DNA of 64,000 bases from an uncultured Eubacteriales bacterium (GCA_964537875.1 CAZIDN010000007.1:6720-70719); one strand, 5' to 3'. Counted from the stretch's first letter, positions 3,020 to 56,087 are shown. Numbers and translations: made by a program. Notes: generated from the letters alone by a model not told the origin.

Positions 3020-3049
3020 TTGACATTCCCCTTCGGAAAAAAATATACT
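3020..3049 (+). promoter_or_regulatory. Candidate promoter of the hydrogenase operon, TTGACA-18nt-TATACT
   Basis: The -35 is consensus and the -10 is near-consensus, ending about 12 nt before the ATG at 3061. The leader is therefore very short. Confidence 0.35.
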
Positions 3050-3060
3050 TTGCCTTCAAA

Positions 3061-4485
3061 ATGAACATTGAGACAATAACACTTCTCACTGTTTTTGTCC
3101 CAATCATTGGCGCCCTCACCATCCCGCTGGCCAGCCTCATCTCTAAGTCCGCCCGGTCGGCCTGGTCCGTCCTCCTCGGCGGCGTCACCGCGCTCCTCCC
3201 CTTGCTCCTCATCCCGACGGCCATCAGCGGCGGCGAAACCATTATCCGGAAGGAGTTCATCCTGGGGCTGGACTTCATCCTCATCATCGACCCTCTGTCC
3301 ATTTTCATGTCCATCGTCTCCTCGTTCGTCGGCTTCCTGATCATCGTCTATTCCCTCGGCTACATCCATCACGAGGAAAACCAGAATGAATACTACCTGA
3401 TGGTGGTCCTCTTCATCGGGGCCATGATGGGGCTGGTGTATTCGGGAAACCTGATCTTCATCTATCTTTTCTGGGAGATCATCGCCATCTGCTGCTGGCG
3501 CCTGATCGGATTTTACCGGCTGAAGGATCATATCCTCAAGGCCGACAAGGCCTTCCTGGTCACGTTCTTCGGGGCCGTGGTCATGCTCCTGGGATTCATC
3601 CAGATCTACGGAAGCACGAATTCATTCGACTTGACGGCAATGCGCGGAACTATGATTCCCGGGACCGCCGTCCTGATGATCCTCTTCGGCATGTTCTCCA
3701 AATCGGCGACGGTGCCCCTTCACACCTGGCTACCAGACGCCGGCGTCGCACCGACGACGGTGACCGCTTTGCTCCACGCGGCGGTGCTCGTCAAAATCGG
3801 CGTCTATGCCTACGCCCGACTTTTCTTGTATACGTTCAAGCTCCCCGGTGACTGGCCGCAGGTCATCCCCATCCTGGCCGTCATCTCGAGCTTGATCGCG
3901 GCCGCTGCGGCGACGGTTGAAAACGACTTCAAGCGCATCCTGGCCTACTCGACGGTAAGCCAGATCGGCTATATCTTTCTTGGCTTCAGTGTGGCCAACC
4001 AATCCGGGGTCTCGGGCTCGTTGCTTTTCATCCTGATGCACGGCCTGGCCAAGGCCGGACTCTTCCTCTGCGCCGGGATCGTCATCCACGCTACGCACAA
4101 ACGGGACATCCGAGAAATGGGCGGGCTGATCAAGACCATGCCCATCACCGCCGTCGCCTTCCTGCTCTGCTCTTTCTCGGTCATCGGCATTCCTCCCTTC
4201 GGAGGCTTCTTCTCCAAGTTCCTGGTCATCATGGGAACCGTCCAGGCCGGACAGGTCTGGGTTGCGGCCGTCGCCCTCTTCACGGCCGTCCTGACCATGT
4301 TTTACCTGCTCAAGGTTTTCAGCCAGGTCTTCCTGGGAGAAGTGAAAATCGCCGCGCCGGAAAAAACGAGATCCATGATTTTTGTCGTCGCCCTCCTGGC
4401 CATCTTATCCCTGGTCGCGGGCATCTTCGTCTCTTATCCCGCCAAAATGGCCGAGATCGCGACGACCCATATCATTGGCGGCTAA
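3061..4485 (+). CDS. Group 4 [NiFe]-hydrogenase membrane subunit, NuoL/M/N-type proton-pumping antiporter-like (HyfB/MnhD-like), copy 1
   Basis: Polytopic membrane protein. It carries the hallmark motifs PLHTWLPDA...TTVTALLHAA...KIGVYAYARL and AYSTVSQIGYIFLG. Confidence 0.8.
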   Translation: MNIETITLLTVFVPIIGALTIPLASLISKSARSAWSVLLGGVTALLPLLLIPTAISGGETIIRKEFILGLDFILIIDPLSIFMSIVSSFVGFLIIVYSLGYIHHEENQNEYYLMVVLFIGAMMGLVYSGNLIFIYLFWEIIAICCWRLIGFYRLKDHILKADKAFLVTFFGAVVMLLGFIQIYGSTNSFDLTAMRGTMIPGTAVLMILFGMFSKSATVPLHTWLPDAGVAPTTVTALLHAAVLVKIGVYAYARLFLYTFKLPGDWPQVIPILAVISSLIAAAAATVENDFKRILAYSTVSQIGYIFLGFSVANQSGVSGSLLFILMHGLAKAGLFLCAGIVIHATHKRDIREMGGLIKTMPITAVAFLLCSFSVIGIPPFGGFFSKFLVIMGTVQAGQVWVAAVALFTAVLTMFYLLKVFSQVFLGEVKIAAPEKTRSMIFVVALLAILSLVAGIFVSYPAKMAEIATTHIIGG

Positions 4486-6383: not shown

Positions 6384-7865
6384 TTGATTTTCCTGTTCAT
6401 CGGCTTGCCCATCCTGGCCGCCGCCGTCCTGCCCCTGATAGGGAAAATATCCAAAAAATTTCTGCCCGATCTCGTCTCCAACGCCGTTTTCCTCTTCCTC
6501 CTCGTCCTTGCCGCAACCTCCGGCCGCCAGATGATCAGCCAGGGTCCCATCCTCAAGCAGCTCAACTGGCTGGGCGAACCGGTCAGCATCCAGGTCGCGG
6601 TCGACGGCTTCAGCCTGTTCATGCTGATGGTCATTTCGCTCCTGACCCTGTGCGTCGGCCTGTTTTCCATCAACTATATGGACCATTACGGCTCCAAGTC
6701 CATCTACTACGCCCTCCTTCTGATGATGATGGCGGGGATGAACGGGCTCGTCCTCGTGACCGACCTCTTCAGCGTTTATCTTTTCCTGGAAGTCGCCGCG
6801 ATCGCTTCCTACTCCCTTGTCGCCTACGGCCTGGAGCACGACGAGCTCGAGGCCTCCTTTAAATATTTGATGCTCTCGGTCATCGCCTCGGCGGGCATTC
6901 TGCTCAGCATCGCCGTCATCTTCGGAATGACGGGGAACCTCGGCTTTGCCGCCGTGGCCGAAAGCCTGCGGAGCCTGGACGCCAAATTCGTGGTCGGTTT
7001 TTGCGCCGCCCTCTTTATCATGGGCTTCGGCTTGAAGGCGGCCCTCGTCCCCTTTCATGCCTGGCTTCCGGACGCCCACCCTTCCGCGCCGGCCCCGATC
7101 TCGGCCATCCTGTCCGGCCTGCTCATCAAAGTTTCCGGCGTCTATGCTCTGGCCAGAATATTTTTTAACGTCTTCGGCCTGACCCCCGCCCTTTCCCAGA
7201 TCTTAATGTATCTCGGCGCCATTTCCATCGTGGTCGCCGCCTTTCTCGCCCTCGGCCAGAAAGACATGAAGCGCATGCTCGCCTACTCTTCGATCAGCCA
7301 GGTGGGATATGTCGTCCTGGGCCTGGGGATCGGCACGCCGCTGGGAATCGCCGGCGGGCTCTTCCATCTCTTCAATCACGCCGTGGCCAAAGGGCTCCTC
7401 TTCTTGAATTCAGGCTCGGTCCAGCAGTCGACCGGAACGCGAAACCTTGATGAAATGGGAGGATTGGCCAGGCGGATGCCCGTGACCGCGGCCACCAACC
7501 TCGTCGGCTCGCTCTCGATCTCGGGCGTACCGCCCCTCGGCGGATTCTGGAGCAAGCTGATCATCATCATGGCCCTGGTCCAGGCGGACGAGTGGTTCCT
7601 GGCCGTCGTCGCCGTCCTGGCCAGCGTGCTCACCCTCTGGTACTATCTCCTCATCCAGCGCAAGGCCTTCTTCGGCAAGTTGAATGAGCGCTGGAAGGAT
7701 GTCAAGGAGGCGCCGTTCTGGATGACGGCCTCGACCGTCATCCTGGCGCTCCTCGTCATCGGCATCGGCATCTTTTTCTCGACCGTCATATCATCCTGGA
7801 TCCAGCCCGCTTCGGACGTGCTGGCCAAGGGAGTCAATCTCTTGTTCGCGTCATGGGGATTTTAG
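6384..7865 (+). CDS. Group 4 [NiFe]-hydrogenase membrane subunit, NuoM/N-type antiporter-like (HyfD/F-like), copy 3
   Basis: Motifs VPFHAWLPDAHPSAPAPISAILSGLLIKVSGVYALARI and AYSSISQVGYVVLG are present. It uses a TTG start preceded by a GAGGAGGA Shine-Dalgarno. Confidence 0.8.
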   Translation: MIFLFIGLPILAAAVLPLIGKISKKFLPDLVSNAVFLFLLVLAATSGRQMISQGPILKQLNWLGEPVSIQVAVDGFSLFMLMVISLLTLCVGLFSINYMDHYGSKSIYYALLLMMMAGMNGLVLVTDLFSVYLFLEVAAIASYSLVAYGLEHDELEASFKYLMLSVIASAGILLSIAVIFGMTGNLGFAAVAESLRSLDAKFVVGFCAALFIMGFGLKAALVPFHAWLPDAHPSAPAPISAILSGLLIKVSGVYALARIFFNVFGLTPALSQILMYLGAISIVVAAFLALGQKDMKRMLAYSSISQVGYVVLGLGIGTPLGIAGGLFHLFNHAVAKGLLFLNSGSVQQSTGTRNLDEMGGLARRMPVTAATNLVGSLSISGVPPLGGFWSKLIIIMALVQADEWFLAVVAVLASVLTLWYYLLIQRKAFFGKLNERWKDVKEAPFWMTASTVILALLVIGIGIFFSTVISSWIQPASDVLAKGVNLLFASWGF

Positions 7866-7868
7866 AAG

Positions 7869-8351
7869 ATGATTCTGCAAATCGTTCTTTTAAGCGGATT
7901 GCTTCTCTTCTCCATCCTGGCCATCCTGTCCAAGGACCTTCTTAAATCGGCCATCAGCCTGGCCATCGCCAGCCTCCTTCTCGGAATCATTTTTTTCCGA
8001 ATGAGCGCTCCCTACGCCGGCGTCTTCGAGATTTCGGTCGTGGCCGGCTTGATCACGGTCCTCTTCATCCTGACCATCGCCCTAACCAAGGCGGAAGGCG
8101 ACGTCCGCGAGGCCAAGCTGGCCAAGCTCGTGTTCCCCCTGTTTTTCGTGATCTTCATCCTCATCGACGTCTTCGTCATGAAGAGCCTCCTCCAGAAGAT
8201 ACCGGCGCTCCCCGAGACCGCGGAGCAAGGCACCTTCGGGGATGTCCTGTGGAAGCAGAGGACGTTCGACCTCATCGGCCAGCTGGCGGTCATACTGGCG
8301 GGAGTCTTCTCCGTCCTGGCCCTGTTCCGAAAGAGGGACAAAAATGAATAA
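7869..8351 (+). CDS. Small hydrophobic hydrogenase/Mrp-type subunit (MnhB-like)
   Basis: A 160-aa protein with four predicted TM helices. Its position in the operon matches MnhB/MbhF-type subunits. Confidence 0.45.
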   Translation: MILQIVLLSGLLLFSILAILSKDLLKSAISLAIASLLLGIIFFRMSAPYAGVFEISVVAGLITVLFILTIALTKAEGDVREAKLAKLVFPLFFVIFILIDVFVMKSLLQKIPALPETAEQGTFGDVLWKQRTFDLIGQLAVILAGVFSVLALFRKRDKNE

Positions 8352-15620: not shown

Positions 15621-16592
15621 ATGGAACGACATCCCAAAAATCCGATATTGACCCGTAAGGATATTCCCGACATCCCTCCCCTGCTGACCGACGCCACATC
15701 GGTCTTCAATCCGGGCGCCGTCAAGTTCGGCGGCAAATATCTTCTCATGCTCCGCGTTCAGAGCCGCTCGCGCGAAACGTTTTTCTTGATGGCCGAGAGC
15801 CAGGATGGCGTGAAATTCACTGTCACCCGTGATCTCGTGGAACTCAAGGGAATCGAGAAGGTCAAAGAAAAAATCTACCATGTCTACGACGCCCGTATCA
15901 CTCAAATCGAAGGGGCTTACTACATCATGTTCGCCATGGATATGGACAGCGGCTGCCAGCTCGGCCTGGCTAAAACAGCCGATTTCCGCAGCTTCGATTT
16001 TCTTGGGATCACATCGACGGACGACGTCCGGAACGGCGTGCTCTTCCCGGAAAAAGTGGGCGGTAAGTATCTCCGGATGGAAAGGCCCAACAAAGCGCGC
16101 CTCGAAGGCGGTCCGACGACCGGCAGCACAATATGGCTGTCCGAATCCGAGGATCTCATCCATTGGAAAGAGCGCGCCCCACTGATTAGCGGCCGATTTC
16201 ATTACTGGGACGAATTTATCGGTTCCGGGCCGCCGCCCGTAAAAACACGAAGCGGCTGGCTTCATATCTACCACGGCGTAGCCACCCATTTCGGAAGCGC
16301 CAACATCTATCAGGCGGGCGTGATGCTGATGGACCTCCATGACCCGGCCAAAGTCATCGGCCGGTGCAGAGGAAATATCCTTGAGCCGCGTGAGTTGTAT
16401 GAGCTTGCCGGCCAGGTCCCCAACGTCGTTTTTCCCAGCGGGATGATCGTTGAGAAATTCGATCAGGCTGGATTCGCGATCCCTGAAAGTCCAGTGAAGG
16501 TTTATTACGGCGCCGCCGACACTACCGTCTGCCTGGCTACAACGACCATTCGGGAACTGCTTGCCGCCGCCCATGAATCGCCGATAATGTGA
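15621..16592 (+). CDS. GH130 family glycoside phosphorylase (beta-mannoside phosphorylase-like)
   Basis: The N-terminal NPILTRKDIP...VFNPGAVKFGGKYLLMLRV and the five-bladed propeller signatures of GH130 are present. Confidence 0.75.
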   Translation: MERHPKNPILTRKDIPDIPPLLTDATSVFNPGAVKFGGKYLLMLRVQSRSRETFFLMAESQDGVKFTVTRDLVELKGIEKVKEKIYHVYDARITQIEGAYYIMFAMDMDSGCQLGLAKTADFRSFDFLGITSTDDVRNGVLFPEKVGGKYLRMERPNKARLEGGPTTGSTIWLSESEDLIHWKERAPLISGRFHYWDEFIGSGPPPVKTRSGWLHIYHGVATHFGSANIYQAGVMLMDLHDPAKVIGRCRGNILEPRELYELAGQVPNVVFPSGMIVEKFDQAGFAIPESPVKVYYGAADTTVCLATTTIRELLAAAHESPIM

Positions 16593-16608
16593 TTGGCGGG
16601 ATCTTGGC

Positions 16609-16687
16609 GGGGTCAAGCCTCAACATTCAACATAATCTCTTTGGACTCACTCTTTATTCTTCTTGTTGAATGTTGAGGTTTGACCCC
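16609..16687. repeat. Family-A element, divergent copy A4. Conserved ends GGGGTCAA/TTGACCCC; unrelated 16-bp inner stem GCCTCAACATTCAACA/TGTTGAATGTTGAGGT; 31-nt loop containing TAATCTCTTTGG.
   Basis: Seen directly in the sequence. It lies immediately 3' of the GH130 gene and 5' of the Fur-family promoter. Confidence 0.7.
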
Positions 16688-16696
16688 GTTTTTCTC

Positions 16697-16745
16697 TTGA
16701 CAAGGACCCATAGTTTGTATAGAATCCAATTTGTAATGATTACAA
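16697..16745 (+). promoter_or_regulatory. Sigma70-type promoter TTGACA(16697-16702)-17nt-TAGAAT(16720-16725), plus the perfect 7-1-7 palindrome TTGTAATGATTACAA (16731-16745) that resembles a PerR/Fur box
   Basis: The palindrome spans the predicted +1 and the ATG (16736) of the Fur-family gene. It matches the PerR-box consensus TTATAATnATTATAA at 13 of 15 positions. Confidence 0.45.
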
Positions 16746-17188
16746 ATAAGGCATTGCTCAAAGACCGGCTCATGAGCAAGGGCATCAAGCCCACCTACCA
16801 GAGGACCGCCATTCTCGGCTTCCTCTTGGATAACAGAATCCACCCCACGATCAAATCCCTGCACCACAGCCTGGTCAAGACCATCCCCACCCTCTCCAAG
16901 ACAACCCTGTACTCGACCCTCGAACTGTTTGCGGCGAAAGGGCTGGTTGCTCCCTTAACCATTGATCGTTCCGAGGTCCGCTATGACGGTCTGGCCTCGT
17001 CCCATCATCATTTTTTCTGCGAGCGCTGCGGCCGGATCATTGACCTCGATGTCTCCTGCGCCAACAGCCGGCGGGGCGAGATCGAGGGACACCGGATCAA
17101 GGAAGTCCATGGCTATTTCAAGGGCATCTGTAAAGACTGCTTGAAGCAAACATATAAAACCAATAAAAGGAGAATTTTTCATGCCTAA
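16736..17188 (+). CDS. Fur-family metalloregulator, probably PerR-type peroxide sensor
   Basis: Shows the [13 protein letters not shown]-binding helix, an HHHF motif, and the CERCG...CKDC structural Zn site. It lies directly upstream of dfx and rbr. The start is placed at the ATG at 16736 (MITNKALL...), giving the normal ~18-aa lead before the TxQR helix and a leaderless mRNA. Confidence 0.75.
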
Positions 17189-17564
17189 CGTTTCAAAACG
17201 CCTGCAGGTATTCCGCTGCGCAGTCTGCGGCAACATCGTCGAAGTAATGCGCGTTGGCGCCGGCGAGCTGGTCTGCTGCGGCCAGCCGATGACGCTACTT
17301 GTCGAAAACACAGTGGATGCATCCAAGGAAAAGCATGTCCCGGTGATCGAGAAGACCGCGGACGGCGTCAAGGTCAAAATCGGCAGCGTTCCCCATCCTA
17401 TGGAGGAAAAGCATTACATCCAGTGGATCGAGCTCATCGTCGATGACAAGACCTACATCGCCTTCCTGAAGCCCGGCCAGGCGCCCGAAGCCTCATTCTG
17501 CGTAAAGGGCACGGCCATGACGGCCAGGGAATACTGCAACTTGCATGGCCTTTGGAAATCATAA
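17181..17564 (+). CDS. dfx: Desulfoferrodoxin (2Fe superoxide reductase)
   Basis: The N-terminal desulforedoxin site [10 protein letters not shown]...CCG and the C-terminal SOR site ([28 protein letters not shown]) are both present. Confidence 0.85.
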
Positions 17565-17582
17565 AGAATAAAGGAGTTACCC

Positions 17583-18161
17583 ATGGCAAAATCCACCAAA
17601 GGAACTAAGACCGAGAAAAATCTTTTAGCCTCTTTCGCCGGCGAATCCCAAGCGCGGAATCGTTACACGTATTTTTCAAGCGTCGCCCGGAAAGCCGGCT
17701 TCGAGCAAATTTCCGCGATCTTTCTGGAGACCGCTGAAAACGAGAGAGAGCATGCCAAGCGGTTCTTCAAGCTGCTGGAAGGCGGAGATCTAGAAATCGT
17801 GGCCGCCTACCCGGCCGGCGTCATCGGCGACACCGCCGCCAACCTAGAGGCCGCTGCCGCCGGCGAACATCTGGAATGGACCAAACTCTACAAGGAAGCC
17901 GGAGAAGTCGCGGCCAAGGAAGGATTCCCGGAAATCGCCAAGCAGTTTCAGGAGATCTCCGAAGTCGAAGCCGAGCATGAGAAGCGCTACCGCAAGCTCT
18001 TGAAGAATGTCAGAGAGGGCAAAGTCTTCAAGAAGGACACGGTTGTCAAGTGGAAATGCCGGAACTGCGGCTATGTCTCTGAAGGAATTGAGGCGCCGAC
18101 GAAGTGCCCGGCCTGCGACCACGCCCAGGCGTTCTACGAGCTGATGGCGGAAAATTACTGA
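17583..18161 (+). CDS. rbr: Rubrerythrin
   Basis: The diiron motifs ENEREHAKRF and EVEAEHEKRY and the C-terminal rubredoxin-like CRNCGY...CPACDH are present. Confidence 0.85.
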   Translation: MAKSTKGTKTEKNLLASFAGESQARNRYTYFSSVARKAGFEQISAIFLETAENEREHAKRFFKLLEGGDLEIVAAYPAGVIGDTAANLEAAAAGEHLEWTKLYKEAGEVAAKEGFPEIAKQFQEISEVEAEHEKRYRKLLKNVREGKVFKKDTVVKWKCRNCGYVSEGIEAPTKCPACDHAQAFYELMAENY

Positions 18162-18179
18162 AAACGCAGATATCCTTGT

Positions 18180-19172
18180 TTATATGATTTGGGGCCGGAT
18201 GACGCGGGCGCCACGGTTCGTGAGTTCGGAGACCAGCGTATCGTACATCTCCTGGCCCTTGTAGATTCCGAGAATCGACCCGCCGGACCCGGCGAACTTG
18301 GCCGAGGCGCCCAAACGGCGGGCGGTTTCGATCATTTCTATGTTGCCCGGATGGATATTCATGATCTTGCGCCGAAGGTCGAAATTCTTGTTCATCATGT
18401 CGAACAATGCTTCCCTGTCTCCGGCGAGCATAGCCGCTTTTCCCATCTCGGCGAGGCCGGCGATCTGCCGCAGCGTTTCGATGACAAACGCATCTCCCCT
18501 CTCGTGACGAATCCGGATATCGTTCAGGACCTTGCCTGAGACCTTCCCGAGCGACGGTTTGTATGCCAAGTAAAGGTCCGGCAGAAGCTGCGGATTGAGT
18601 CGCTCATAAATACCGTAGCCCTTTTCTTTGATCATCGCTTCAGGGAGGTCCATATAGACACAGCCCTCATAGACCTGGGTTACCCTGTCCATAAAACCGG
18701 CGCTTATGTCCAGCTCATCCCGTTCCGCGCTCAGGATGAGGGAAGGCTGGATATGGATCGGAATCTCGACTCCGTAGAATTTCATCAGAGCCCGGAGGGT
18801 CGCCGTGACGATGGCGCTCGAACCTCCCAGCCCGACTTGCCGGGGAATCGTCGATTCATAGCGGATGGTGAAGTTCTGTCCTTGAAGAGGGATGTCCTGG
18901 CTCCGGCAGTATTCGTAAAATTTCTTCAGCGCCGCTTTGATTAAACGGACACCACCGTAATACCCGTAGAGGCCCACGGACTCGGCCAGTTCCTGGAGAC
19001 TTCCGTACGCTTCCCTGTCCTCGGCTCGAAGCTCGATCCGGAGTTGTGCGGATTTTTCAAGGATGCAGCGGGCGGCAAAATTTTTGACAGAAATAGCGAT
19101 GATCTTCCCGAAATAGCCGTCCGATGGATTTCCCAGGATGCCCGCCCGCGCGTAAGCAACGCCTTCAATCAT
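18180..19172 (-). CDS. GHMP-family sugar kinase (specific substrate not determinable)
   Basis: The GHMP ATP-binding motif PRQVGLGGSSAIVTA is present. Total length is 330 aa. Confidence 0.6.
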   Translation of the reverse strand: MIEGVAYARAGILGNPSDGYFGKIIAISVKNFAARCILEKSAQLRIELRAEDREAYGSLQELAESVGLYGYYGGVRLIKAALKKFYEYCRSQDIPLQGQNFTIRYESTIPRQVGLGGSSAIVTATLRALMKFYGVEIPIHIQPSLILSAERDELDISAGFMDRVTQVYEGCVYMDLPEAMIKEKGYGIYERLNPQLLPDLYLAYKPSLGKVSGKVLNDIRIRHERGDAFVIETLRQIAGLAEMGKAAMLAGDREALFDMMNKNFDLRRKIMNIHPGNIEMIETARRLGASAKFAGSGGSILGIYKGQEMYDTLVSELTNRGARVIRPQII

Positions 19173-34180: not shown

Positions 34181-34245
34181 AATTTCTCCTCCCTGGACAA
34201 CCTCGAGACTAATATCAGCGTAATAATTAAAATGACATCCCCGTT

Positions 34246-53432: not shown

Positions 53433-56087
53433 TCATCGAATCTCGATCTTTGCGGTCAGGACCTGGTCAGGCCATTCGGCCGCCTGCCCCTTGAAGCCGG
53501 GCTGGATTCCTCCGACGGACACCTCAAACACCCCCGGTTCGACAGCCCTCTTAAGATCCTTGCCAATCAGCGAAAATTGTTCGGGCCTCAGGCTGAATCT
53601 GACGGTTTTCTTTTCTCCGGGGTTCAAGAAAACCCTCTCAAAACCCTGCAGCGCCTTTAGAGGAACCGGAACGGAAGCTACGACATCCGTGAGGTAAAGT
53701 TGGACGACCTCCTCACCCGCCTTGGCTCCTATGTTCTGGACGTCCACGGCGACAGTCACGTCGCGATCGGCCGTTACGATTTCGGGGACCGCAAGATTCG
53801 AATACTCGAATTTCGTGAAGCTCAGCCCGAAGCCGAACGGATAAAGCGGCCGGCCTTGGAAATAGCGGTAGGTGCGTCCTTTCATCGCATAATCCTTAAA
53901 AGGAGGGAGGTCGTTCACGGACCTATAAAATGTGACCGGCAGCCGGCCGCCCGGATTATAGTCGCCGAACAAAACGTCGGCGACGGCATACCCGGCTGCC
54001 TGGCCGGGGTACCAGGCTTCGATGATAGCGGGGATGTTCTCGCTGGCCCAGTTGACCGCCACGGCGCTGCCATTCAGAAGGACCAGGACGACCGGCTTGC
54101 CGAGCCCGGCGACCGACTTCATGAGGTCCTCCTGGACGGCCGGCAGGTCAAGGGTGAGCCTGTCCCCGCCCGCAAACCCCTCTACGGGCACATCCATCTC
54201 TTCTCCCTCGAGCCGCGGGGACAGGCCCATGGCCAAGATCACGACATCCGCTTTCCCGGCTTTTTCCAGGGCCTCTTTCTTGTGATCGATGCCGGGCAGC
54301 CTCCATAAAAGCCTGATCTGGGCGTCGCCCGCCCGCTCAAAAAATTCAACCTTGATCTTGTAGCGCTTGCCGCCGAGGAGGTCCACAGGCTTATAGGTTT
54401 TTCGAGGATGATGCGTCCCCTCAAAACTGACAAGAAGCTTTTCGTCGAGAAAAATCCGGAATCCGTTGAACCCTTCGGCGCCGAGCATGTAGATCCCGGA
54501 CACCGGCGGGACGATCTCCCCTGTCCAGCGCACGCCGAAATTGTCCGGGTCAAAATTTGGGTCCGGCGCTCCGTCCCACCAGTTGAAATCGAGCCTCTTG
54601 TCGATACGCATGAACACCGGCTCTCCCTGAAAATCACGGTTATTGAAATATTCGCCCTTCAGGCCGTTCACCGGTTTGCCGGCATCAGAGGTGAGGAAAG
54701 CCGTGGCCGGCACGACTTCCAGGACCGGCATATTCGCCGCCCATTCGCAGCCCAGAGCGTAAAGGACTTTCGTCTCAGGACCGACCTTGTCGATGATTCC
54801 CTGCAAAAGCGTTTCCGGATTGGACGGTGTCCCGTTATAGTTGCCGAGCAGGACTTCCACATCGGCGGCGTTCGGCCCGATAACCGCGATCGTCTTCAAA
54901 GCCCTGGACAAAGGGAGAATTTCCTTATCGTTCTTTAAAAGAACGATCGATTTTCTGGCGGCTTCGAGGGCCAGGATCCTATGCGACTTGCTGTCGACGA
55001 CCGAATAGGGGATCTTCGCGTAGGGCACCATCTCCGGCGGGTCGAACATGCCCAGCTTGAAGCGCGCCCGGAAAAGCCTTTTGACGGAAACGTCGATCTC
55101 TTTCTCTGTGATCCACCCTTTCTTGACGGCCTCCATCAGATTCTTGTACTCGTGGCCGCAGCTGAGATCGCATCCGGATTTCACGGCCAGCGCCGCCGCT
55201 TCGGCCGAAGTTGCGACGATCTTGTGTCCCGCGGTGATATCGGTGATGGCGCCGCAGTCAGAAACGACATATCCGCTGAAACCCCATTCATTGCGCAGGA
55301 TGGACGTCAGCAGACGGGAGCTGCCGCAGCATGCTTCGCCCATGTATCTGTTGTAAGCGCACATCACGGAAAACGCCTTGGCTTCCATGATGCAGGCCTG
55401 GAAATGAGGCAGATAGGACTCGAGGAAGTCCCGCTCGTCCGTGACGGCGTCGAAGGAATGACGGTCTGTCTCGGGCCCGCTGTGGACGACATAATGCTTG
55501 GGCGTTGCGACGACCTTCAAATAACGCGGATCCTGGCCTTGCAGACCCTGGATGAAGGCCACGCCGAAGCGGCCGGTCAAATACGGATCTTCTCCGTACG
55601 TCTCCATCCCCCGGCCCCAGCGCGGGTCGCGGAACAGGTTGATGTTCGGCGACCAGAATGTGAGACCCTGGTAGATCCCGCGCAGGCCCCTCCGGACGAA
55701 CTCGTGGTGTTTGGCCCTGGCTTCGTCCGAAATTGCCGTCGCCACCCTTTGCATGAGATCGGTATCCCAAGTTGCGGCCAGCCCGATGGCTTGGGGAAAA
55801 ACTGTGGCCAGGCCCGCCCGCGCCACGCCGTGCAAGCCTTCGTTCCACCAGTCATATTTTGGAATGTCGAGCCTGTCGACGGCGGCCGCATCGTTCATCA
55901 TCTGGGAGACTTTTTCCTCAAGCGTCATCCGCGAGACCAAATCATAGAGCCGTTTTTCAAGGGGGAGTCCGGGGTCTTTATAAGCCGGCCCAGGACTCAT
56001 CTTTTTCGCGCACCGGCTGCCGCCAACGACAAAGAAAACAGCGATCAAAAGAGGGGAGAAAAGTTTCCAATGACGGCGCACGTCCAT
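53433..56087 (-). CDS. GH3 beta-glucosidase/beta-xylosidase-type enzyme with PA14 insertion, secreted
   Basis: A signal peptide is present. The GH3 nucleophile motif GFSGYVVSDCGAI is present. A PA14-like segment and a C-terminal Fn3-like domain are present. Total length is 884 aa. Confidence 0.8.
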   Translation of the reverse strand: MDVRRHWKLFSPLLIAVFFVVGGSRCAKKMSPGPAYKDPGLPLEKRLYDLVSRMTLEEKVSQMMNDAAAVDRLDIPKYDWWNEGLHGVARAGLATVFPQAIGLAATWDTDLMQRVATAISDEARAKHHEFVRRGLRGIYQGLTFWSPNINLFRDPRWGRGMETYGEDPYLTGRFGVAFIQGLQGQDPRYLKVVATPKHYVVHSGPETDRHSFDAVTDERDFLESYLPHFQACIMEAKAFSVMCAYNRYMGEACCGSSRLLTSILRNEWGFSGYVVSDCGAITDITAGHKIVATSAEAAALAVKSGCDLSCGHEYKNLMEAVKKGWITEKEIDVSVKRLFRARFKLGMFDPPEMVPYAKIPYSVVDSKSHRILALEAARKSIVLLKNDKEILPLSRALKTIAVIGPNAADVEVLLGNYNGTPSNPETLLQGIIDKVGPETKVLYALGCEWAANMPVLEVVPATAFLTSDAGKPVNGLKGEYFNNRDFQGEPVFMRIDKRLDFNWWDGAPDPNFDPDNFGVRWTGEIVPPVSGIYMLGAEGFNGFRIFLDEKLLVSFEGTHHPRKTYKPVDLLGGKRYKIKVEFFERAGDAQIRLLWRLPGIDHKKEALEKAGKADVVILAMGLSPRLEGEEMDVPVEGFAGGDRLTLDLPAVQEDLMKSVAGLGKPVVLVLLNGSAVAVNWASENIPAIIEAWYPGQAAGYAVADVLFGDYNPGGRLPVTFYRSVNDLPPFKDYAMKGRTYRYFQGRPLYPFGFGLSFTKFEYSNLAVPEIVTADRDVTVAVDVQNIGAKAGEEVVQLYLTDVVASVPVPLKALQGFERVFLNPGEKKTVRFSLRPEQFSLIGKDLKRAVEPGVFEVSVGGIQPGFKGQAAEWPDQVLTAKIEIR

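Follow-up and report, generated by a model that had tools for sequence, protein, structure and literature searches.

We propose that the window, i.e. the whole 64,000-nucleotide stretch of DNA analysed here, carries a negatively autoregulated perR-like-dfx-rbr oxidative-stress operon of an Aminicenantes bacterium, in which the operator lies over the transcription start and the first four codons of the regulator gene, the ATG at the dyad centre of this operator being the start codon of the regulator itself. We put the probability of this reading at roughly 0.8. The elements of the region, in window coordinates, are the following:

16608..16693, + strand: long hairpin (arms 16608-16632 and 16664-16688, 31-nt loop), then TTTTT, from folding
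16697..16702, + strand: -35 hexamer TTGACA, from the sequence and the promoter scan, invariant in eight Aminicenantes loci
16720..16725, + strand: -10 hexamer TAGAAT, of which TA.AAT is invariant, placed at a constant distance from the box in relatives
16729..16747, no strand assigned: predicted PerR-type operator ATTTGTAATGATTACAAAT, with its 7-1-7 core at 16731-16745, covering the predicted +1 and codons 1-4
16732..16736, + strand: predicted transcription start zone, 7-11 nt past the -10 (T16732 or G16733 most likely), from promoter geometry
16736..17188, + strand: perR-like gene of the Fur family, 150 aa, TAA at 17186-17188, its last 8 nt overlapping the dfx start (ATGCCTAA)
17168..17172, + strand: Shine-Dalgarno sequence AGGAG for dfx, within the final perR codons
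17181..17564, + strand: desulfoferrodoxin gene (2Fe, class I superoxide reductase), 127 aa, PF06397 and PF01880
17572..17576, + strand: Shine-Dalgarno sequence AGGAG for rbr
17583..18161, + strand: rubrerythrin gene, 192 aa, PF02915 and PF21349

The promoter and the palindrome can be read directly from the sequence (16400-18800 was inspected). TTGACA is separated by a 17-nt spacer from TAGAAT, which is followed by CCAAT and then by TTGTAATGATTACAA (16731-16745). This is the order of elements that had been described in an earlier, sequence-only reading of this DNA, except that the palindrome is longer than the 7-1-7 repeat claimed there: it extends by 2 bases on each side to form a perfect 9-1-9 palindrome, ATTTGTAAT-G-ATTACAAAT (16729-16747). 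The operator is therefore 19 bp long, and its first base lies 3 nt past the -10 hexamer. In a promoter scan, the promoter of the perR-like gene showed 11 matches out of 12. Sites of at least 11/12 were observed 6 times in the 64-kb window while 0.48 were expected from shuffles, indicating that consensus sigma-70 promoters are used in this genome.

The exact box occurs only once in 64 kb, and a box matrix derived from homologous loci gave a score of 34.5 bits here versus 9.5 bits for the runner-up in the window. Symmetry by itself is not striking, as 7 perfect 7-1-7 palindromes were observed in the window with 3.7 expected; the significance of this one resides in its Fur-family box sequence and in its conservation in orthologous loci, and not in its symmetry alone. 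The sequence-only reading had suggested searching for additional TTGTAAT-N-ATTACAA boxes; none was found within 2 mismatches elsewhere in the 64-kb window. Two matches with 3 mismatches, at positions 34218 and 53365, are attributable to chance (0.86 expected) and were rejected, as was another 9-1-9 palindrome at position 54928, which is located inside a long glycoside-hydrolase-like ORF and was taken as chance. The runner-up of the matrix search, at 16713-16731, is a degenerate box-like site which overlaps the -10 hexamer and precedes the main box by 16 nt. In WOR-3 and in some Aminicenantes loci, two boxes are arranged with a spacing of 17 nt (see below); the degenerate site may be what is left of such a pair, or a weak equivalent of it.

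The regulator-dfx-rbr operon that had been proposed from the sequence is borne out by family profiles and by its recurrence. The dfx product contains the Desulfoferrod_N and Desulfoferrodox domains and matches TIGR00320 (dfx_rbo) at equivalog level (211 bits for a cut-off of 146.9), while the rbr product contains a Rubrerythrin domain (ferritin-like di-iron) and a C-terminal RUBY_RBDX domain and matches NF045767 with 290.6 bits (cut-off 200). The perR-dfx-rbr order is found in about 25 of the loci described below, and in most of the others rbr and/or dfx are close neighbours in the same orientation. Both dfx and rbr are preceded by AGGAG sites 6-8 nt ahead of their ATGs. The C-terminus of the regulator, RRxxHA (17160-17188), is conserved across the family, the likely reason being that its codons also carry the AGGAG and the start codon of dfx, the two genes overlapping by 8 nt. 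Thus, with the dfx signals at its 3’ end and the operator at its 5’ end, the regulator ORF holds overlapping signals at both extremities.

Upstream, a GH130 gene is present on the same strand, and downstream a GHMP-kinase gene is convergent. The nearest relatives of this DNA are Candidatus Aminicenantes MAGs, with DNA identity of at most 91% and conserved synteny. Between the stop codon of the GH130 gene and the -35 of the operon sits the long hairpin, the 25-nt arms of which are 96% complementary (-52.9 kcal/mol, z = -9.2); within the window it is found here only, and it is also present in the closest relative, L001. It is likely the intrinsic terminator of the GH130 gene, shielding the promoter of the operon against read-through. 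A terminator placed directly before the -35 makes a transcription start of the operon far upstream unlikely. This hairpin is much longer than typical terminators. An Rfam scan of 16000-18600 returned no known RNA family, the sub-threshold matches to microRNA models on the upstream hairpin being spurious.

The conservation of the box was analysed across homologous loci. A scan of GTDB genomes returned 445 relatives, and 80 loci amounting to 567 kb were analysed; boxes were called within 2 mismatches, and gene-start zones were defined as 150 nt, together 2% of the sequence. A box is present at the gene start in 63 of the 80 loci, and 70 of the 85 boxes in the 567 kb lie within gene-start zones, counts which overstate the number of independent events since the loci are phylogenetically related. 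When the loci are anchored on the KPTxQR codons, the box is at exactly the same offset as in the window in 46 out of 72. In 8 Aminicenantes loci, invariant upstream columns are confined to the -35, to TA.AAT within the -10 and to the box, which amounts to a phylogenetic footprint of these elements. Conservation is visible within codons as well: Ile2 is encoded by ATT in 39/39 loci (34% in the rest of the same genes) and Thr3 by ACA in 38/38 (19% in the rest), which indicates selection on the DNA and not on the protein. The non-coding left half-site is conserved to the same extent as the coding right half. Two loci, L018 and L033, have C as the centre base (ATC); their start has moved to a downstream Met while the box has not moved, so that a box is kept there without a start codon, again indicating that it is the DNA, and not the codons, that is conserved. 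Together, the gene-start frequency, the distribution of boxes and the limits of the footprint agree with the earlier suggestion that the palindrome would be an operator-like element tied to this regulator family.

Three arrangements were observed among these loci. In the first, TTGACA-17-TAnAAT is followed after 3-6 nt by a box containing the ATG; this is the arrangement of the window and of most Aminicenantes, Marinimicrobia, Elusimicrobia and Margulisbacteria loci. In another, seen in WOR-3 and some Aminicenantes, two boxes are positioned 17 nt apart, the first holding the -10 and the second the ATG. The remaining one, a single box containing the -10, is found in three loci (L044, L060 and L076).

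The ATG at the centre of the palindrome (16736-16738) is in frame with the Fur-family ORF, and the N-terminus encoded from it, MIT(N/K), is kept in homologues down to about 50% identity. Counted from this start, the protein is in register with B. subtilis PerR to within one position (residue 10 against residue 11), and helix 1 of an AlphaFold model spans residues 5-14, in agreement with PerR. Three public assemblies contain the identical 150-aa protein with the central ATG called as its start, and the identical locus is present in assemblies ERR4334733, ERR4334734 and ERR4334736. In L028, from Elusimicrobiota, the regulator is 4 aa shorter at its N-terminus, and the whole set of promoter, box and ATG has shifted with it.

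We then considered how translation of the regulator might begin. No Shine-Dalgarno sequence precedes the perR-like ATG (the upstream sequence is ATCCAATTTGTA), whereas dfx, rbr and other genes of the window located behind strong promoters have AGGAG- or GGAG-type sites. The distance from the -10 to the ATG is 10 nt here; in relatives it is 9-11 nt in 29 of 41 scored loci, 6-8 nt in two, and 15 nt in eight two-box loci, and this last value indicates that a leader of zero length is not the conserved feature. If transcription starts on the 7th base after the -10, the +1 would be T16732 (G16733 if a purine is preferred), giving a leader of 3-4 nt, and the 9-11 nt spacing of the relatives would correspond to a leader of 2-4 nt. 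As 10 nt is more than the usual 6 nt, a transcript without any leader is improbable by E. coli rules: it would need an unusually long discriminator region. Thus, the near-leaderless transcript with a start at about 16732 that had been suggested fits the promoter geometry and the missing Shine-Dalgarno sequence, while the stricter version, a 5’-terminal AUG, is disfavoured by the spacing. We infer that conservation extends to a very short leader lacking a Shine-Dalgarno sequence (predicted at about 0-4 nt), which need not have zero length. Elsewhere in the window, at 3020-3063, TTGACA-18-TATACT is followed after 11 nt with no Shine-Dalgarno sequence by an ATG at 3061, the start of a gene for a 474-aa Mrp/Nuo antiporter-type subunit (Proton_antipo_M). 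The -10-to-ATG geometry of this gene is like that of the perR-like gene, and this mode of initiation may therefore be ordinary for the organism.

The regulator belongs to the Fur family (Pfam FUR, PF01475, E = 1.3e-21, 77.4 bits for a cut-off of 23.1). Among proteins of known structure, it is most similar to B. subtilis PerR (E = 8e-20) and S. pyogenes PerR. The AlphaFold2 model (mean pLDDT 77) displays an N-terminal winged-helix domain and a C-terminal dimerisation domain, and the top Foldseek matches are PerR/Fur structures, with TM-scores of 0.72/0.78 and an rmsd of 3.4 for holo-PerR 3F8N. C95/C98 and C132/C135 align with C96/C99 and C136/C139 of the B. subtilis protein, which form a structural Zn(Cys)4 site, and are invariant in 33 homologues. 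H36, D84, H90, H92 and D103 align with B. subtilis H37, D85, H91, H93 and D104, three His and two Asp which we take to be the regulatory metal site of PerR, and show no or almost no variation in the family. An Asp at the D104 position is a hallmark of PerR; Fur proteins have a Glu there. Cys108 and His125 are also invariant and Glu123 nearly so; these may form a further metal site specific to the clade. The NCBIfam PerR equivalog models give low scores, the best being NF052545 with 83.6 bits for a cut-off of 180, and the Irr and Fur models match as well. With scores so far below the cut-off, the effector cannot be assigned by homology alone. We place the regulator in a divergent clade of PerR-like proteins which are not equivalogs of the characterised PerRs, and it would probably sense peroxide.

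Could the true start be elsewhere, at the ATG at 16670 (172-aa product) or at Met13 (16772), behind an ordinary leader, with the ATG of the box being merely part of the operator consensus? Some database entries are indeed called at 172 or 138 aa. The central G, and hence the ATG, is also present in boxes away from gene starts, such as that ahead of nrdD in L038; the starts of L018 and L033 lie downstream of the box; and many relatives read MITNM, so that their second Met could be a start. Against this, the 22-aa extension from 16670 would begin upstream of the promoter and is not conserved, and a stop codon directly upstream of the box ATG in four relatives (L007, L009, L012 and L024) excludes the 172-aa form. 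Met13 is replaced in close relatives (by CTG in L001, TTG in L002 and GTT in L003), is not preceded by a Shine-Dalgarno sequence, and as a start would remove helix 1 of the Fur fold. In L005 and L006, there is no other ATG, GTG or TTG between the box ATG and the DNA-binding domain. We therefore regard a start at either of these positions as very unlikely. These observations, together with the conserved MIT and an N-terminus which matches that of PerR to within 1 residue, uphold the central ATG of the palindrome as the start of the regulator, as had been proposed from the sequence. Even less probable, indeed hardly credible, is that the palindrome is there by chance, is an mRNA hairpin hiding the start codon, or is the site of an unrelated protein. 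In favour of chance, the window holds several perfect 7-1-7 palindromes (7, with 3.7 expected, see above), but this one has the sequence of a Fur-family 7-1-7 box and co-occurs with the regulator family across phyla at a fixed position. A role as an mRNA hairpin is made unlikely by its weak RNA fold (-4.3 kcal/mol, z = -0.4, no better than shuffled sequences); moreover, most of the left arm would stay untranscribed, and Rfam yields no meaningful match.

As regards the effector, the regulator could instead be a metal sensor (Fur-, Zur- or Mur-like), in which case the box would make the expression of two iron proteins depend on metal supply. A single base separates the half-site TTGTAAT from the TTATAAT of B. 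subtilis PerR, and a single base likewise separates it from the TCGTAAT of Zur; it is thus as near to the Zur box (TCGTAATNATTACGA) as it is to the Per box (TTATAATNATTATAA), the B. subtilis consensus sequences being those of PMC545781; the 7-1-7 register is shared with the Per box. Dfx and Rbr are iron proteins, and the sub-threshold scores of the PerR equivalog models, together with the matches to Irr and Fur models, point the same way. Yet all five residues of the PerR regulatory site are present, including the Asp at the D104 equivalent, the top sequence and fold matches are PerR, and the genes linked to it are consistently those of ROS detoxification, not those of metal transport. In anaerobes, moreover, rbr and sor operons are established targets of PerR (PMC8546684, PMC545781). 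We conclude that a metal sensor is unlikely and favour the PerR-like, peroxide-responsive repressor in what follows.

For the autoregulated perR-like-dfx-rbr operon, we propose the following mechanism. A metal-loaded dimer of the regulator would bind 16729-16747, about -4 to +16 relative to the predicted start, and block either open-complex formation or promoter escape. Peroxide would oxidise the Fe-bound histidines, as in B. subtilis PerR, and the repressor would be released, allowing all three genes to be transcribed as one mRNA. On this mRNA, the regulator would be translated inefficiently, by leaderless-type initiation from a leader of some 0-4 nt that lacks a Shine-Dalgarno sequence, while dfx and rbr would be translated well from their AGGAG sites, dfx being additionally coupled to perR by the 8-nt overlap. 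In this way, a single promoter would yield a small amount of repressor along with a large amount of enzyme, and newly made repressor would close the promoter once peroxide has been cleared. The proposal of differential translation draws, by analogy, on a measured precedent, the leaderless acuR-acuI-dddL operon (PMC3017554).

We compared this operon with known systems. In B. subtilis, perR is autoregulated, the regulator repressing its own promoter as is predicted here. The regulator described here and B. subtilis PerR are alike in being Fur-family proteins with the same dimeric fold, regulatory-site residues, Cys4 zinc site and 7-1-7 register of the box. They differ in that identity is about 29%, the protein falls below the NCBIfam PerR cut-offs, position 3 of the half-site (TTGTAAT) is G and not A, Ser takes the place of N61 in the recognition helix, and the start codon is at the dyad centre. 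No clean pattern of covariation between the recognition helix and the box variants TTGTAAT and TTATAAT emerged from the homologue alignment. In C. acetobutylicum, rbr and dfx are under PerR control. In the rbr1-perR-rbo(sor) operon of C. difficile, a PerR box is located between a sigma-A promoter and the RBS (PMC8546684; bioRxiv 10.1101/2024.09.17.613384). As in the window, where repression is predicted, regulator, rubrerythrin and desulfoferrodoxin are thus combined in one PerR-repressed operon of an anaerobe with the box just past a sigma-70-type promoter. In C. difficile, however, rbr comes first and a leader with an RBS follows the box, whereas here the regulator comes first, the RBS and, as predicted, the leader are missing, and the start codon is in the box. 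The predicted D. vulgaris perR-rbr-rdl and Geobacter perR-rbr-roo operons (Rodionov et al. 2004, PMC545781) resemble the one described here in having the regulator first, together with rubrerythrin, downstream of a palindrome overlapping promoter elements, and in the local, lineage-specific character of the regulation; they differ in their box sequences, in the location of the sites 36-99 nt before the start codon, and in having predicted Shine-Dalgarno boxes.

Leader-free regulator genes also provide points of comparison. The furA gene of the mycobacterial furA1-katG1 operon is leaderless (PMC12713383). The two systems would be alike in having a Fur-family peroxide regulator as the first gene of a peroxide-detoxification operon, a leaderless mRNA and self-repression via an inverted repeat; the partner, however, is a catalase-peroxidase, and leaderless mRNAs are common in the mycobacterial phylum. 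The FurA site reportedly lies upstream, over the -35 region, and does not include the start codon (Sala et al. 2003). In acuR-acuI-dddL, acuR was measured to be translated less than the downstream enzyme genes (PMC3017554), and the lambda cI gene transcribed from PRM and the tetR gene of Tn1721 are further leader-free repressor genes (reviewed in PMC3017554). In these three cases, as is predicted here, a repressor gene with neither leader nor Shine-Dalgarno sequence precedes genes with strong sites and the operator overlaps the promoter, but the families are unrelated (TetR, cI) and the operators are upstream of +1, not across the start codon.

Autoregulated PerR operons with rubrerythrin and superoxide reductase are already known, and so are leaderless regulator-first operons. 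What appears new is the start codon at the dyad centre of the regulator’s own operator, the MIT N-terminus that this position dictates, and the conservation of this arrangement across several candidate phyla. A literature search for the exact box sequence together with PerR gave no relevant match. The understanding of PerR regulation is unchanged by these results. For several uncultured anaerobic phyla, they offer an operator (TTGTAATNATTACAA) and a promoter model that would apply to the oxidative-stress regulon, and they fix the start codon of a gene which pipelines annotate at 138, 150 or 172 aa. They also provide a clean case of dual coding, in which a protein-binding site sets the first codons of its predicted binder, and a probable Fur-family example, outside Actinobacteria, of the regulator-first, leader-free operon design. 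A more far-reaching view, which we find doubtful, is that promoter, operator and ATG form a conserved and possibly horizontally mobile cassette in Aminicenantes, Marinimicrobia, Elusimicrobia, Margulisbacteria and WOR-3, in which the operator dictates Met-Ile-Thr and leaderless-type (70S) initiation is a selected layer of control. If this were true, leaderless-type initiation would fix a low repressor-to-enzyme ratio, and the repressor would perhaps still be translated under stress, when canonical initiation is impaired.

The box was also used to scan metagenomes. An 8-1-8 version yielded at least 120 matches. The matches listed are mostly chance occurrences in AT-rich contigs, and regulon members for this organism were not derived from them. 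Among the matches listed, 14 adjoin more distant PerR-like genes, and a rubrerythrin gene (in L169) and a reverse-rubrerythrin-perR pair (in L084) lie downstream of a box. In the distant loci, the box directly follows the -10 and is itself followed by a leader of about 13-70 nt, about half of these loci having a clear GGAG-type RBS. The region before the perR-like gene thus looks like the common PerR layout (-10, box, leader, RBS) minus its leader. The distant lineage of L084 illustrates this layout at 6973-8134, where the order is -10, box, RBS-containing leader, reverse rubrerythrin gene (N-terminal rubredoxin domain) and PerR-like gene. In Stahlbacteria, tandem boxes, the first of which embeds the -10, are present before nrdD (NRDD and ATP-cone) in L038 (1740-1771), L057 (799-830) and L061 (1757-1788), and in these three loci a perR-like gene is found directly downstream of the anaerobic ribonucleotide reductase gene. 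The position of these tandem boxes suggests that nrdD is part of the regulon in that lineage.
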